IMG/VR virus record: IMGVR_UViG_3300027741_000020
From: a virus
Strand: one strand, 5' to 3'
Length of the DNA: 64,000 bases
Within the stretch, counting starts at the first letter, position 1, and the number at the start of each line of letters is the position of its first letter. The notes beneath the pieces are model-generated. The model ran no database searches. It had not been told where the DNA came from and saw only the letters and a list, made by a program, of their open reading frames with translations. A program made the translations under genes and the position numbers. Positions 11,562 through 27,289 of the stretch are shown here, piece by piece.

Positions 11562-11741
11562 ATGAGATTACTACTAAGATTTATATGGGGCATGTTGCAA
11601 ATAACATTGGGTTCATTTACCGTGATACATGCTATGGATAAACCAGTAACGTTTCTTAGAGTACTATTTATAATAACCGGTATTATAACACTAGCAAAGG
11701 GATACCTTAAAGTAGATGAAATATAATAACGAAGAGGTATA
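11562..11741 (+). CDS. small membrane protein (59 aa)
   Basis: Hand-translated MRLLLRFIWGMLQITLGSF... Confidence 0.6.
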
Positions 11742-11812
11742 AAACAAAGGGCAGGGCACAAAGATACTGAACTTAGGGAGAGGTCGAGGAACTTCCATTA
11801 CCTTTTAAGGAT

Positions 11813-11941
11813 AGTCAGTTGGCGGAATTGGTAGACGCAAACGATGGTGACCTTCCATCATTAAATAAGAAGAGAACTTTTTGAGTTAAAGTCATGTAGG
11901 CGCAAGCAAAACTCATACAGGTTCAAATCCTGTACTGACTA
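11813..11941 (+). ncRNA. tRNA-Leu-like scaffold, non-canonical anticodon arm, expanded variable region (129 nt)
   Basis: Acceptor AGTCAGT/ACTGACT + A73; D-arm GCGGAATTGGTAGACGC; T-arm ACAGG-TTCAAAT-CCTGT. Confidence 0.75.
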
Positions 11942-11953
11942 CTGAAATAATAT

Positions 11954-12503
11954 GGGGATGTCCTGGCATTTGATTGGTATGCAGAAGGGTAGCACCACAC
12001 GCGGACAAAGCATGAATGTCCTTAAATACTTGTAAAACAATAAACGCAGAAAAAACATCTCGTCAAGAAATCGGTGCATCTATCATCAACATGGCTTTCG
12101 AGTCATTTGCTGTAGCAGCGTAGTCTTCAGGTTGGTAACTGACCTTGGAACAGAATAGTTACAAAAGTGCATATCCAACTACCGTAAAGTGGTCACAATG
12201 TTGGAATGATCCCCGTCAAGAATGTGTGTAATCGGGGCGGTTGAGTTAATCATTTACCTTTGGTAGGCGATCTCTAAAGGTTTTCTTGGTTGAACCCGAA
12301 TCAACTAAGTGGTGGATCTACTGTATTTAACCAATATAGTCCCATTACTAATCAAGGGAACGTTTAGTACGTTTGCTGCTGTGATAAGCATTCCACCCTA
12401 GATTTACCTCCTGCTTCTGTGTAGAACAGAGTAGCTAAGCGTGTGAGACGTTGGTGTTGCAATTCCATATCAAGACACGGGTTCGAGTCCCGTCATCTCC
12501 ACC
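11954..12503 (+). ncRNA. ssrA: tmRNA
   Basis: GGGGATG/CATCTCC acceptor with G3.U70, ACC end, T-arm ACGGG-TTCGAGT-CCCGT, helix CACACGC/GCGTGTG, tag ORF 12046-12123 ending AVAA. Confidence 0.93.
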
Positions 12504-12516
12504 GTCAACTTTTTTG

Positions 12517-12555
12517 AGTTTGTCATATGTATAATAGCATATACTATGACAAACT
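12517..12555 (+). other. long hairpin 3' of tmRNA
   Basis: AGTTTGTCATA/TATGACAAACT perfect 11-bp arms. Confidence 0.6.
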
Positions 12556-12581
12556 TAATTAAGTTAAAAAAATAAAAAAGA

Positions 12582-12613
12582 TTTGGTAGAATGAAAAATT
12601 TATCGTATCTTTA
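12582..12613 (+). promoter_or_regulatory. promoter, copy 1 of ~41-bp triplicated unit
   Basis: TTTG-N20-TATCTTTA. Confidence 0.8.
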
Positions 12614-12635
12614 ATATATCAAAGAAATAATAAGT

Positions 12636-12851
12636 ATGACATCAAAAGATTTTACAAATTGGTTAAGAGGTTATATAGCTGGTAGTAATGAGTTACCTTT
12701 AAAAGTTAAAAATGAACTTACGAAGGTATTAGATGATATTGTTGAGGATGGTATAAAGCCTACAATGTTTACATATACAGGTACAGGCAATAGAACAATA
12801 GCTGGCGGATCTACATATACTACGGATATACCGAATACAAAAACAATTTAA
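12636..12851 (+). CDS. hypothetical protein
   Basis: ORF between repeated promoters. Confidence 0.7.
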   Translation: MTSKDFTNWLRGYIAGSNELPLKVKNELTKVLDDIVEDGIKPTMFTYTGTGNRTIAGGSTYTTDIPNTKTI

Positions 12852-12858
12852 AAAAAGA

Positions 12859-12890
12859 TTTGGTAGATTAAAAAATTTATCGTATCTTTA
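12859..12890 (+). promoter_or_regulatory. promoter, copy 2
   Basis: TTTG-N20-TATCTTTA. Confidence 0.8.
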
Positions 12891-12896
12891 ACAAAC

Positions 12897-13009
12897 AAAC
12901 TGATGAATGGTTGAAGCCAACATCTAATAAAACCGAATGTGTGACTCTATAAACATTAGTATCTTGAGAGTGAAACGATACTATAAAGCCGGTTATCATT
13001 AATCAGTTT
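12897..13009 (+). ncRNA. unassigned structured small RNA
   Basis: Ends pair (AAACTGAT/ATCAGTTT); AACCG/CGGTT encloses two hairpins with complementary loops ACTCT/AGAGT; own promoter. Confidence 0.6.
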
Positions 13010-13030
13010 AAAAAAAAAGATTAAAAAAGA

Positions 13031-13062
13031 TTTGGTAGAATGAAAAATTTATCGTATCTTTA
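13031..13062 (+). promoter_or_regulatory. promoter, copy 3
   Basis: TTTG-N20-TATCTTTA; boxA-like GTTCTTTGA at 13077. Confidence 0.8.
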
Positions 13063-13090
13063 ATTAAACAAAGAAAGTTCTTTGATTATA

Positions 13091-13950
13091 AAGATATTGT
13101 TAATATAGTAAGTTCGTCTTACACAATTAACGACGGGTGTCTATGCTCGGTTTTAGATAAACTACGAAAGTAGGATAAAGTGGAATGTTTGGTTAAGCAT
13201 TCTGCAGTTTCAACCCTGTAAGGTTGGAACGCATGTAGACAAGTGAGATACTGTTTGAGCTCTGTATGTGAGGGTGACACTGTAACAGAAAAGTTTGAAT
13301 GATTAGGGTAAGTAGATACTCTAATTGAGCTCGGAAGAGCAATAGGAATAACTCATAGAGTATATGTGAGAAATACGAACTTAATCCCTTCGTATCATTT
13401 CGTTACTCAATATCAGAGTGGTCTTAACATCAATCTATCCGAAAGGACGCTAGATAAGACTGTGTACAGGTGGTGCTGTTACTATCCTTACATTTTATGT
13501 ACCAACATATTTGTATGAAGATGACTCAAAATATGGCAATAGGGATATTGCATCGGGTAGTTTAGTATTCTCTGACTCAAAAGGTGAGAGAGCTAGTGGC
13601 AGACCGCTACCTGAATCAATCTACAAACCACAACAACTTTTTTTTATTCAAAAAATAATCATAAAGCAAAAGTGTTTGCCAGTTATAGACGAAAGGTGTC
13701 TACATAGTAACGAGTTGTTCGTTGCCACGATACCACCGCAAGTGGTCTGTGATTCTAATGAAAAACTTCTAACGCCGCAAGTGTTAATCAGGTCGGCAGA
13801 CTTGAAGAAGCAGATTAGTTAGAGAGTAGTTTATGACTTTATGAGTGGTTCGCATTACGGACCGACACTGTACTGATACTTCTCAAAAGGAAGTGGATAC
13901 GAAGGAAAACAATAACCCTTCCAAAGATGGTACACCCAAACCAATAATCT
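13091..13950 (+). ncRNA. large ornate ncRNA, GOLLD-like
   Basis: ~860 nt, GC-richer than flanks, many GNRA hairpins (CTAC-GAAA-GTAG, TCC-GAAA-GGA, ACCAC-CGCAA-GTGGT), ends can pair, adjacent to tRNA; family not verified. Confidence 0.6.
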
Positions 13951-13962
13951 CATGGTTTATAA

Positions 13963-14033
13963 GCGGAATTAGTGTAATGGTAGCACAGCAGCCCTCCAGG
14001 CTGCAGGATGAAGTTCGATTCTTTGGTCCCGCT
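13963..14033 (+). tRNA. tRNA-Gly(TCC), degenerate
   Basis: Cloverleaf; GCAGC-CCTCCAG-GCTGC; C33 instead of U, acceptor mismatch, weak T-stem, U73. Confidence 0.6.
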
Positions 14034-14049
14034 CATAATATGAAGAACC

Positions 14050-14075
14050 CCCCGAACATGAGTTTGGGGTTTTTT
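14050..14075 (+). terminator. intrinsic terminator
   Basis: CCCCGAAC-ATGA-GTTTGGGG + T6. Confidence 0.75.
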
Positions 14076-14095
14076 GTTACTTAAAATTACATACT

Positions 14096-14494
14096 ATGTT
14101 AGCATTAGAAGATTTAAAAGCAATGACTGAATTACAAATCAAGCAGCATTTGGAATTAAAATACTCCGGTGAAGGTGTGGATGTTGATGAAATAACAAAG
14201 GCTTTGCAAGATTTAGAAATTTTAGTGGCATACGAATCAGTAGGGTCGTGGGGATGTGATTCCACTTCATTCTTTTTATTCAAAGATAATAAAGGTAAAT
14301 TATATGAAATGCATGGCTCACATTGTTCGTGCTATGGATTTGAAGGCCAGTTTAGGTTGGAAAAATCTGAAAGACAAGCATTGTGGTATAGAATGTACGA
14401 GGGTAAAGGCAAACTATTTAGTACGGGTGGATATGATTATGAGTGTGATAAGAATATGGCAAAGGTACATAAATACATTAAAGAGAATTTATAA
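14096..14494 (+). CDS. hypothetical protein
   Basis: GSWGCD..HGSHCSCYGFE motif typical of phage proteins. Confidence 0.75.
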   Translation: MLALEDLKAMTELQIKQHLELKYSGEGVDVDEITKALQDLEILVAYESVGSWGCDSTSFFLFKDNKGKLYEMHGSHCSCYGFEGQFRLEKSERQALWYRMYEGKGKLFSTGGYDYECDKNMAKVHKYIKENL

Positions 14495-14498
14495 CAAT

Positions 14499-14570
14499 GC
14501 CGCCGTCGTCTAACGGTTAGGACGGAAGATTTTCATTCTTCAAACGGGAGTTCGATTCTCCTCGGTGGTA
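14499..14570 (+). tRNA. tRNA-Glu(TTC)
   Basis: Full cloverleaf; GAAGA-TTTTCAT-TCTTC; GGGAG-TTCGATT-CTCCT; CCA not encoded. Confidence 0.9.
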
Positions 14571-14575
14571 CGATG

Positions 14576-14690
14576 TACCTTGCAGGCCACAAGGTCGTAG
14601 TTCCTCCTCGCCTCTCAACTGATGCACACTATGGAGCCAGATCGTAAGCTGGATATGTTGGCAACTCATACTGACCTGTTAAAAGTTGCA
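14576..14690 (+). ncRNA. unassigned structured RNA between tRNA elements
   Basis: Hairpins ACCTTG/CAAGGT, AGTT/AACT with pyrimidine loop, CCAG/CTGG, GCAACT/AGTTGC; no ORF. Confidence 0.45.
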
Positions 14691-14694
14691 AAAT

Positions 14695-14777
14695 AGTCAG
14701 GTGGCGGTATGGTGTTGTCGTAAATAGAATAGCCGAGGTCGTAAGCCCTCAAGCAGGTTCGAATCCTGTCCTGACTA
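14695..14777 (+). ncRNA. tRNA-Leu-like scaffold lacking anticodon arm
   Basis: Acceptor AGTCAGG/CCTGACT + A73; D-stem GCG/CGT; T-arm GCAGG-TTCGAAT-CCTGT; 13-nt A-rich linker in place of anticodon arm. Confidence 0.7.
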
Positions 14778-14785
14778 CAATAGGT

Positions 14786-14901
14786 TGAACGGGGAAAGAT
14801 AGACCGCTAAAACGAGTTAGTGAAAATCTACATTCTATCGGAGGTGTAAGCAAGTAAAGCCGTTCATAAAAGTAGATGTCCACTCGCCCATCTTCTACTT
14901 T
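14786..14901 (+). ncRNA. unassigned structured RNA with possible loop-loop pseudoknot
   Basis: TGAACGG/CCGTTCA, GATAGA/TCTATC, CGCTAA/TTAGTG, AAAGTAGA/TCTACTTT; loops CGAG(T)/ACTCG complementary. Confidence 0.55.
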
Positions 14902-14909
14902 CCTAACAT

Positions 14910-15025
14910 ACAGCAGTGGCGGAAACGGATAATGTCGACATAAATCCGTAAGTTAGACGTAGGGCTCTTCGGAGGTCAGTTAAATAGGTAACTAAACTAT
15001 ATAGGTGCAAATCCTATCTGCTGTA
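14910..15025 (+). ncRNA. tRNA-like scaffold with D-loop hairpin insert and UUCG-capped anticodon arm
   Basis: Acceptor ACAGCAG/CTGCTGT + A73; T-arm ATAGG-TGCAAAT-CCTAT; ACGGAT/ATCCGT in D-loop; CTC-TTCG-GAG; variable arm AGTTA/TAACT. Confidence 0.7.
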
Positions 15026-15028
15026 CTA

Positions 15029-15409
15029 TACATTATCGTTCTTTGATATATAGGAGAAAACAAAATATGAATACACAATTAGCATTTGCTTTTGGTATGC
15101 TTGCGATGGTTGCTATCACAATGTTGGTAGTAATTGTTGTAGGTATGGTAAAGGTGATTAGATTAGCAAACAAATTAGAAAATTTAGAGCAGACAGTCGG
15201 ACGTGAAGTTGAACTTATACATAGACAGACATCGGATGTTGAGAGAAATATGTATAGTGAAATACACAATGTCCGTAACAATATTGACAAGTATACGGAA
15301 GATTTAAGACGTGAATGTATGGCTTATACGGACTCCAGAGTTGATAAAGTACAAAACAAAAAACAATTACTAAACGATTAAAATAAAATAATCAAAGAAC
15401 GATAATGTA
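15029..15409. repeat. perfect 19-bp inverted repeat (15029-15047 / 15391-15409) bracketing one ORF
   Basis: TACATTATCGTTCTTTGAT vs ATCAAAGAACGATAATGTA. Confidence 0.9.
15067..15381 (+). CDS. TM-anchored coiled-coil protein
   Basis: N-terminal TM then heptads; ATG 15067 preferred. Confidence 0.7.
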   Translation: MNTQLAFAFGMLAMVAITMLVVIVVGMVKVIRLANKLENLEQTVGREVELIHRQTSDVERNMYSEIHNVRNNIDKYTEDLRRECMAYTDSRVDKVQNKKQLLND

Positions 15410-15433: not shown

Positions 15434-15913
15434 ATGATACAAAGAAAAATATGGTTATATTTAGATGATGTTCGTATCCCAAAAGATAATCAATGGGAAG
15501 TGGTTACGAATTATGATGAATTTGTAAAGCATGTAAATTTACACGGATTGGAAAATTATGAGTGTATATCTCTTGACCACGATTTAGGTGAAGAAGCAAT
15601 GCAGGAGTATTATCGTAATGTAAAAACCAATGGTTATTTGGAATATAACAATATAACCGAAAAAACCGGATTGGATTGTGCAAGATACATTGTGAATTTA
15701 TCTATGGATAATCATATACCTTTACCAAAAGTATATTGTCATTCAGCAAATCCGGTAGGAGCTATTAATATAATGAACCACATAAACGGCTATTTAAAAA
15801 GTTGTGAATTGAAAGAAAGTTGTGTAATGGTTAAGATAGAACACACATACCGAGTACTTTCTAGCGAAGTGAAAACGACACGATTGGCAATTAAAAATGG
15901 AGACTTAAAATAA
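15434..15913 (+). CDS. cyclic-phosphate-processing receiver domain protein
   Basis: LYLDDVR, ISLDHDLG, TGLDCA, HSANPVG. Confidence 0.75.
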   Translation: MIQRKIWLYLDDVRIPKDNQWEVVTNYDEFVKHVNLHGLENYECISLDHDLGEEAMQEYYRNVKTNGYLEYNNITEKTGLDCARYIVNLSMDNHIPLPKVYCHSANPVGAINIMNHINGYLKSCELKESCVMVKIEHTYRVLSSEVKTTRLAIKNGDLK

Positions 15914-26200: not shown

Positions 26201-27289
26201 ATGAAATACGACTTAGATAGAATAAACAAATACATAGCAGATGGCTTGATAGTGAAGCAAGACCACCCTGAATATCCAATATCAATTTACAATTATTCTC
26301 GTACGTGCCAGTACGAATCTAAATGGGATGATTTGACTATTGAATGTAGGGGACTGGTATTAGACAGAGAAGGTAATGTAATGGCTAAATCGTTTCCTAA
26401 ATTCTTTAACTACGAAGAATTGGAAGGTATGACATTTAGAACATCAAAGATACCAAATGAATCTTTTGAAGTGTTTGAAAAAATGGATGGCTCTTTGGGT
26501 ATTGTGTTTTATTACGAAGGTAAATGGAGAGTAGCAACCAGAGGCTCATTCACATCGGAACAATCAATAATGGGAGCAGAGATATTAAAGAAGTATGATA
26601 CCGATTTACTATCGCCCGGCTATACCTATTTGTTTGAGATAATATACACTGGAAATAGAATAGTGGTTGATTATGGTAACTCCGAAAGAATGGTTATGTT
26701 GGCTTGTATAGATAGTTCAGCGGATGGAATTGAATCAGATATACACATTCCTTACTATATGGATAATTTTGACGTAGTGAAAAAGTACGATGGTATAACT
26801 GATTTTAAGGAATTGAAAGAAAATATATCAAAGGATGCCGAAGGTTATGTAATCAGGTTCAAAGGTGGAATGAGAATGAAAATAAAAGGTACTGAATACA
26901 TACGCTTACATAAAATACTAACTAACTTTTCATCCGTTGATATATGGGAGTTACTACGTGACGGTAAACCTTTGGATGAATTTTTAGATAGGGTGCCAGA
27001 TGAATTTGATGCATGGGTAAAGCAAACCATAGGTAACTTACGATACGCTAAATTCTCTATTGGTGAAAGGTATGGTAAGATATACGACCACTTCCGATAT
27101 GGTAAGTATGGCGATGTATATCCGGAACCTACCAAAAAGCAATTCGCTGAGTATCTTAAAAATACCGAACCTGCTTTGAGAGCAGTATGTTTCGCAATGT
27201 GGGATAAGAAACCATATGACCACATCATATGGAAACTAATCAAACCAAAATACGATAAACCATTTTTAAAAAACTTTAAAGAAATATAA
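26201..27289 (+). CDS. RNA ligase, T4 Rnl1-like
   Basis: KFFNYEE, EKMDGSLG, ATRGSF, FEIIY, EGYV, KIK..EY.RLH. Confidence 0.88.
   Translation: MKYDLDRINKYIADGLIVKQDHPEYPISIYNYSRTCQYESKWDDLTIECRGLVLDREGNVMAKSFPKFFNYEELEGMTFRTSKIPNESFEVFEKMDGSLGIVFYYEGKWRVATRGSFTSEQSIMGAEILKKYDTDLLSPGYTYLFEIIYTGNRIVVDYGNSERMVMLACIDSSADGIESDIHIPYYMDNFDVVKKYDGITDFKELKENISKDAEGYVIRFKGGMRMKIKGTEYIRLHKILTNFSSVDIWELLRDGKPLDEFLDRVPDEFDAWVKQTIGNLRYAKFSIGERYGKIYDHFRYGKYGDVYPEPTKKQFAEYLKNTEPALRAVCFAMWDKKPYDHIIWKLIKPKYDKPFLKNFKEI

Follow-up and report, generated by a model that had tools for sequence, protein, structure and literature searches.

RESULTS

Three tRNA-like elements in a phage RNA island

The window analyzed here is the whole 64,000-nt stretch of the IMG/VR virus record IMGVR_UViG_3300027741_000020. 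It contains an RNA island, spanning 11.7 to 15.0 kb on the + strand, in which three tRNA-like elements (elements 1, 2, and 3) lie among tRNA genes, a transfer-messenger RNA (tmRNA) gene, a GOLLD RNA gene, and two spacers without an open reading frame (ORF), RNA A and RNA B (Table 1). A preliminary description had proposed that these elements are tRNA-Leu-like scaffolds without a usable anticodon and that they punctuate the island. The first part of this proposal was confirmed: the acceptor stem of each element was perfectly paired over 7 bp, U8-G9 was followed by a D stem beginning with GCG, and a 5-bp T stem with its T loop and A73 were present; a usable anticodon loop was absent from all three. 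Cloverleaf-like shapes were recovered for elements 1 to 3 by minimum free energy folding.

Table 1. Features of the RNA island and its surroundings in the window (R1, covariance model of the element family; see text)
Feature	Position	Strand	Evidence or remark
65-nt G-rich RNA module	11737..11803	+	Lies 10 nt ahead of element 1, as a predicted 5' leader
Element 1, tRNA-Leu-type frame with 78-nt three-hairpin insert	11813..11941	+	R1 55.6 bits, E 4e-11
tmRNA (RF00023)	11954..12504	+	Rfam 64.7 bits versus cut-off of 47
GOLLD RNA (RF02032), conserved 3' half	13553..13956	+	Rfam 299.8 bits
tRNA-Gly(UCC)	13963..14034	+	ARAGORN and Rfam; 6 nt past GOLLD
tRNA-Glu(UUC)	14499..14571	+	ARAGORN and Rfam; first unit of punctuated run
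RNA A, ORF-free 123-nt spacer	14572..14694	+	Separates tRNA-Glu from element 2
Element 2, 83-nt minimal frame without anticodon arm	14695..14777	+	R1 66.5 bits; conserved subfamily
RNA B, ORF-free 132-nt spacer	14778..14909	+	Conserved 3' hairpin at 14868-14901
Element 3, divergent tRNA-like RNA	14910..15025	+	Rfam tRNA 27.0 bits; R1 21.5 bits
112-aa ORF	15043..15381	+	N-terminal hydrophobic stretch by sequence reading (putative)
cREC_REC (cyclic-phosphate processing receiver) protein	15434..15913	+	Pfam PF20274, E 1.6e-18
T4 Rnl1-type RNA ligase	26201..27289		10 kb beyond cREC_REC gene

The region between the D arm and the T arm was different in each element. Element 1, with an AGUCAGU/ACUGACU acceptor stem, a D stem of GCG paired with CGC, and a D loop like that of E. 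coli tRNA-Leu, had a GAUGG/CCAUC stem with the loop UGACCUU, in which G33 and U37 are noncanonical. This stem-loop was followed by approximately 55 nt arranged in two hairpins and then by the T arm and A73. In element 2 (acceptor stem AGUCAGG/CCUGACU), 13 A-rich nt and a 4-bp hairpin stood in place of the anticodon arm. In element 3 (acceptor stem ACAGCAG/CUGCUGU), a 6-bp hairpin interrupted the D loop, a stem with a C(UUCG)G cap occupied the anticodon position, and GUAA closed the extra arm. A canonical anticodon arm, defined as a 5-bp stem with a 7-nt loop having U33 and a purine at position 37, was absent from elements 1 to 3. ARAGORN called only tRNA-Gly and tRNA-Glu in the window and none of the elements, and the Rfam tRNA model (RF00005) scored elements 3 and 2 at 27.0 and 25.5 bits, below the gathering cut-off of 29, and gave no match to element 1 at E values up to 10. 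Over the elements, no Rfam match to tmRNA was obtained, and none to a group I intron at E values up to 10.

Arms were capped by GNRA loops in element 1 (GCAA) and element 3 (GUAA), and the loop UC-GUAA-GC was common to RNA A (14646-14653) and element 2 (14739-14746); the GNRA loops of RNA A and of elements 1 to 3 could act as docking loops. The D-loop hairpin of element 3 (14925-14950) had a 10-nt palindrome in its loop, of which the homologue in contig L001 had 8 nt, and a relative in L162 (3874-3903) had a different hairpin with another 8-nt palindrome in the loop. The sequences of these loops suggest a kissing-loop homodimer in the lineage of element 3. Kissing loops as a family-wide trait were rejected, as palindromes of at least 8 nt numbered 29 versus 48 in shuffled sequences.

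A phage RNA family with a constant frame and variable inserts

A 24-nt pattern covering the T arm and 3' acceptor strand of elements 1 and 2 was detected in at least 120 contigs of IMG/VR, and as many as six copies lay within 5 kb. Almost every match was preceded by a 5' acceptor strand complementary to its 3' acceptor strand and by a D arm of the E. coli tRNA-Leu type, and between the D arm and the T arm were 20 to 110 nt of unrelated sequence that differed from copy to copy. We refer to the constant part as the AGUCAGG frame and to the variable part as the insert. ARAGORN called 35 of the 184 pattern matches, with anticodons that were scattered and mutually inconsistent. In a scan of prokaryotes using one genome per species (185,579 species), the acceptor/T pattern, with its A1-U72 acceptor, was detected in only 23 contigs of metagenome-assembled genomes, mostly freshwater Bacteroidota bins, and hence the frame does not belong to a host tRNA. 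A blastn search of 50,697 cultured-phage records with the 34-nt T-arm/acceptor segment detected no frame member; partial matches to the T arm alone were obtained in ordinary tRNAs and in T5 rna2. No published description of the AGUCAGG-frame family was found in a literature search that left subscription journals outside, so that absence is not proven, and this family of uncultured freshwater phages is apparently undescribed.

In order to compare the three elements with this family, a covariance model (R1) of 54 members, all from other contigs, was run unfiltered over the entire window. The top three hits were elements 2, 1, and 3, at 66.5 (a value inflated by the four members of the element 2 subfamily in the training set), 55.6, and 21.5 bits. 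The next hit scored 16.3 bits, and the tRNA-Glu of the window scored 8.7 bits. In control regions of T4 and T5, scores of 12 to 27 bits were obtained for ordinary tRNAs, T5 rna2, and T4 RNAC. Judged against these controls, elements 1 and 2 are clear members of the AGUCAGG-frame family of phage RNAs, and element 3 is a divergent tRNA-like relative that R1 cannot separate from generic tRNA likeness. Element 3 had the UGGCGGAA start and the overall design in common with the family and a different acceptor sequence.

The AGUCAGG acceptor and T arm were also observed on genes of approximately 70 nt with apparently canonical anticodon arms in L047, L012, L078, and L016, the anticodons being Lys UUU, Lys CUU, Ile UAU, and Val CAC. 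The acceptor/T module therefore spans different decoding identities.

Selection on the frames acts at the RNA level

Conservation and covariation were examined in the family. Among 210 unique members, U8, A14, A15, G18, U48, the T loop, and A73 were each kept in approximately 85 to 100%; these are the nucleotides that build the core and the elbow of a tRNA. The D stem covaried, with GUG accompanied by CAC in 14 of 23 cases and GCG accompanied by CGC in 111 of 150. Among elements with a Leu-type D arm that lay in the retrieved loci and had not been selected by any search pattern, 60 of 122 formed all seven acceptor pairs and at least nine acceptor variants contained double compensatory changes. 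Compensated variants of the T stem were also present in the family.

Similar changes were detected in the closer relatives of elements 2 and 3. Element 2 had ten distinct homologues, distributed over 16 contigs; these showed an insert with almost no variation, a compensatory change from UAGG/CCUA to GAGG/CCUC in the hairpin, and covariation in the D stem. Homologues of element 3 were found in L001, L162, and L164: the L001 copy had A-U to G-C swaps in the T stem and in the extra arm, and the L162 and L164 copies differed in the D-loop hairpin and the stem cap and kept the design. The preliminary description had argued from the intact stems that the elements are not products of random decay and had named covariation across related phages as a check. 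This argument is borne out by the homologues, whose acceptor, D, T, and insert stems contain compensatory changes. Taken on these alignments, the constraint on the frames acts on RNA.

Inserts behave as modules

The 226 unique frames gave 194 insert clusters, 175 of which were singletons. Despite this diversity, each insert subfamily was internally conserved and covarying. The conservation of the element 2 insert, almost base for base across 16 contigs, indicates that inserts are selected in their own right. The 65-nt module upstream of element 1 had no match in Rfam. Copies with 98 to 100% identity were located inside the frames of L087, L098, and L154, and in L014 an 80% copy immediately followed a frame on its 3' side; this module thus has copies before, inside, and after frames.

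The two spacers of the island also had relatives next to frames. RNA A had one relative, with 76% identity, directly upstream of a frame gene in L032, and its fold was no better than those of shuffled sequences (z = +0.97). Base pairing is possible between the purine-rich 3' part of the 65-nt module (11778-11796) and pyrimidine-rich nucleotides of RNA A (14598-14615), over 8 + 6 bp with small bulges. The 3' hairpin of RNA B, which has a conserved C-rich loop (UCCACNCNCCC) and compensatory stem changes, was present in at least 11 contigs, among them the window, L001, L017, L042, L052, L094, L110, L157, L158, and L164. In four of these (the window, L001, L094, and L017), the hairpin ended 2 to 5 nt before a frame gene.

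The closest relative of the window was L001. At positions 1700 to 2350 of this contig, a putative homing endonuclease ORF was inserted between the tRNA-Glu and the frame genes, and the frames at positions matching those of the window carried different inserts.

Frames have a pre-tRNA context and abut neighboring RNAs

The flanks of frame genes were compared with those of ordinary tRNAs from the same loci. U(-1) was present in 80% of frame genes versus 70% of tRNAs and C74 in 97% versus 92%. These frequencies, like those of ordinary tRNAs, indicate that the frames share the pre-tRNA context.

The arrangement of the island was consistent with cleavage at these flanks. Element 1 ended 12 nt before the tmRNA match, and tRNA-Glu, RNA A, element 2, RNA B, and element 3 were consecutive, with zero spare bases. 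A scan of the window for the strict promoter motif described below found none inside the run from tRNA-Glu to element 3. With abutting units and no such motif inside the run, cleavage by RNase P and 3' processing of the frames would free RNA A, RNA B, and the upstream module and would expose the tmRNA precursor. Across the family, frame-to-frame gaps were never less than 30 nt, whereas tRNA-to-tRNA gaps were less than 10 nt in 53 of 153 cases, and 60 of the 74 frame-adjoining gaps of 60 to 300 nt had no internal ORF of at least 30 aa.

An explanation of the elements as pure punctuation would make them RNase P/Z cleavage signals that release their neighbors, with the inserts as filler. The tight bracketing of RNA A and RNA B by tRNA-Glu and elements 2 and 3, the position of element 1 at 10 nt past a conserved module and 12 nt ahead of the tmRNA, the spacing and the scarcity of ORFs in the gaps next to frames, and the RNA B hairpin ending 2 to 5 nt before a frame in four contigs are all as this explanation predicts. 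We nevertheless regard it as improbable. The insert of element 2, nearly invariant in 16 contigs and with a compensatory change, is not filler; the ordinary tRNAs of the same islands could serve equally well as cleavage signals; RNA A, one of the presumed products, folds no better than shuffled sequences; and in L164 the relative of element 3 has a protein gene on either side and no noncoding RNA next to it. The proposal in the preliminary description that the elements are processing punctuation marks was thus sustained in part, by the abutting layout and the U(-1)/C74 flanks, and failed as an account of their whole function, given the conserved element 2 insert and the lone L164 relative. Punctuation would be a real but secondary consequence of the frames, a side effect in the island.

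Charging, DNA-level function, and decay as alternatives

The preliminary description had also raised the idea of chargeable decoys. E. coli leucyl-tRNA synthetase (LeuRS) requires A73, A15-U48, G18G19, and D/T-loop contacts and still aminoacylates tRNA-Leu variants without an anticodon arm and a variable arm (PMC9976931). Both element 1 and the consensus of the family contained the full E. coli Leu identity set (A73, A15-U48, G18G19, and the T-loop nucleotides U54/U55/C56/A58), and charging of element 1 by LeuRS is plausible from its sequence. Element 2 kept A73, the GG, and the T loop and had U15/A48 and a rebuilt D arm. Element 3 kept A73 and had a D loop without GG and G55.

A chargeable, non-decoding Leu acceptor could titrate LeuRS or EF-Tu, donate Leu outside translation, or escape anticodon nucleases. 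The retention of the published identity elements (PMC9976931) in element 1 and most family members fits such a role, and the cREC_REC protein and the Rnl1-type ligase suggest a conflict over tRNA. We consider this role unlikely. Elements 2 and 3 depart from the identity set as described above. Possession of the Leu identity nucleotides is no proof of charging, because folding of the L shape depends on them as well, so that they are not specific to LeuRS. The rules were established for E. coli, whereas the likely host belongs to the Bacteroidota; a decoy aimed at anticodon nucleases would be expected to retain an anticodon loop; and nothing connects the RNA-repair genes to the elements, the cREC family being present in only 7 loci.

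If the constant ends were instead targets of recombination or homing endonucleases, or cassette junctions, the elements would act at the DNA level and their RNA shape would be a relic of a tRNA. Contigs that otherwise differ greatly have conserved nucleotide sequences at the ends of the elements and unrelated middles, one module occurs in different frames and outside frames, and homing endonuclease genes are common nearby (a GIY-YIG family in nine loci and the putative gene in L001). Nonetheless, this explanation is very unlikely: compensatory changes preserve the pairing of the acceptor, D, and T stems, and only an RNA constraint explains the retention of the unpaired tertiary nucleotides U8, A14, A15, G18, U48, and the T loop. 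An RNA function could well be combined with exchange at the constant ends.

Decaying tRNA pseudogenes, or true tRNAs with an anticodon restored by splicing, are scarcely tenable as explanations and were rejected: the location in a tRNA island and scores just below the Rfam tRNA cut-off would suit them, but the stems are perfect and the homologues conserved and covarying, the inserts (32 to 78 nt) are far below group I size and match no intron family, elements 1 and 2 allow no 7-nt loop having U33 and R37, and the CUUCGGA loop of element 3 needs a 4-bp stem with two G-U pairs and differs at this place in the L162 relative. The preliminary description had named a spliced intron that restores a canonical anticodon loop as counting against its reading; in view of the insert sizes and the lack of a group I match, no intron could do so here.

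Other features of the island and the window

The tmRNA gene, detected by Rfam and missed by ARAGORN, carried long insertions. Its tag frame, read from the Rfam alignment, encoded approximately 25 residues ending in FAVAA and was followed by a UAG stop. The motif TTTG, 20 nt, TAnnTTTR, which we take to be the Bacteroidota promoter type (-33/-7), occurred 14 times in the window versus 2.07 expected, and none of 100 shuffled sequences reached 14. Three near-identical copies, at 12582-12613, 12859-12890, and 13031-13062, preceded a 71-aa ORF, a 113-nt structured RNA (12897-13009; z = -1.8), and GOLLD, respectively. The whole GOLLD RNA probably starts near 13069, after the third copy. GOLLD has been reported near tRNA islands (bioRxiv 10.1101/2024.12.08.627333). 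A search with the whole island matched only two uncultured huge phages, over GOLLD.

The window derives from a large phage that encodes a chaperonin, a family A DNA polymerase, a thymidylate synthase, and the Rnl1-type RNA ligase and cREC_REC proteins. The cREC_REC protein adjoining the island and the ligase look like an RNA/tRNA repair set. Homologues of the 112-aa ORF were present in 13 loci, in several of which they lay 150 to 450 nt downstream of a frame gene. The commonest families in the neighborhood of frames were DUF932, terminase, sigma factor, GIY-YIG and T5orf172 endonucleases, and phosphoesterase.

DISCUSSION

These analyses identified a family of phage RNA genes with a conserved and covarying tRNA-like frame, flanks like those of pre-tRNAs, and highly diverse inserts. 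The elements are probably non-decoding small RNAs that pass through tRNA processing, with the insert as their working part and with the ends of neighboring RNAs set as a secondary effect. The family genes would derive from class II tRNA-Leu, having retained the acceptor stem, D arm, T arm, discriminator, and core tertiary nucleotides and having swapped the anticodon and variable arms for an unrelated folded insert. As the frame and its flanks resemble a pre-tRNA, the host tRNA machinery would be expected to mature the frames, with RNase P acting at the 5' end, followed by 3' trimming and CCA addition. We infer from this context that the frames are processed into stable, L-shaped small RNAs, unable to decode, that display the insert as the working part. 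The same cuts would free the co-transcribed 5' module, the 5' end of the tmRNA, RNA A, and RNA B.

Several observations fit this interpretation poorly. The sequence of the acceptor stem is near-invariant, beyond what processing alone should need, which points to a sequence-specific reader or to homogenization by recombination. Clustering of 3,045 ORFs from approximately 160 loci detected no protein family in more than 15 loci and hence no common protein partner. Under R1, element 3 scored no higher than the ordinary tRNAs of T4 and T5. The fold z scores of the elements were just -1.2 to -2.1; such values are usual for tRNAs, and they were not counted as evidence.

A broader proposal, which we put forward as doubtful, is that freshwater Bacteroidota phages employ the Leu-tRNA frame as a natural vehicle that expresses and displays a large, fast-swapping library of small RNA domains, possibly aminoacylated and shielded. 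A Leu-type frame would suit this use because LeuRS ignores the anticodon region. The inserts might bind host factors, such as defense proteins, or dock via GNRA and kissing loops on giant RNAs encoded by the same phage, such as GOLLD.

If the small RNAs are made as predicted for non-decoding, tRNA-processed products, then the "tRNA scaffold" trick existed in nature well before it was engineered, and with hundreds of inserts. A large pool of unannotated phage small RNAs would have been overlooked by tRNA finders and Rfam, and there would be a way into the old question of the role of T4 RNAC and RNAD and of T5 rna2. The island joins the elements with a tmRNA, GOLLD, and RNA-repair genes and is therefore a compact place to test their joint action.

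The nearest phage counterparts are T4 RNAC (species 1), T4 RNAD (species 2), and T5 rna2, which are small stable RNAs of phage tRNA clusters, as the elements would be, and which have, like the elements, a tRNA-like acceptor/T-arm end and no anticodon as read by eye. The roles of RNAC and RNAD have been unknown for decades (PMC3014915, PMC9697503). Unlike the family described here, these RNAs have no Leu-type D arm and no constant AGUCAGG frame, and the R1 scores of the T4/T5 stable RNAs (23.0 and 26.1 bits) were no higher than those of ordinary T4/T5 tRNAs. They are also single genes, whereas the present family has many members with interchangeable inserts.

The tmRNA has the same topology as the elements, an acceptor/T-arm domain closing a large insert at the anticodon arm, and a synthetase that ignores the anticodon. 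It is of the Ala type with a G-U pair at position 3-70, whereas the elements are of the Leu type with a full D arm and have U-A or A-U at this position, and their inserts, short and hypervariable, lack both a tag reading frame and the pseudoknots of tmRNA. Class II tRNA-Leu (RF00005) has the acceptor/T minihelix, U8, a D arm of the E. coli tRNA-Leu type, A15-U48, and A73 in common with the family frame, but the elements lack its anticodon stem-loop and fall below or outside the Rfam match.

In mitochondrial tRNA punctuation, tRNA-shaped units define the ends of neighboring transcripts; this is an organelle system, whereas the elements are phage encoded. In the engineered tRNA scaffold, reportedly described by Ponchon and Dardel in 2007, an RNA of interest replaces the anticodon arm and so undergoes tRNA-like processing and stabilization. 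That scaffold is a laboratory design, whereas the elements are natural, phage encoded, and diversified and would be processed in the same manner.

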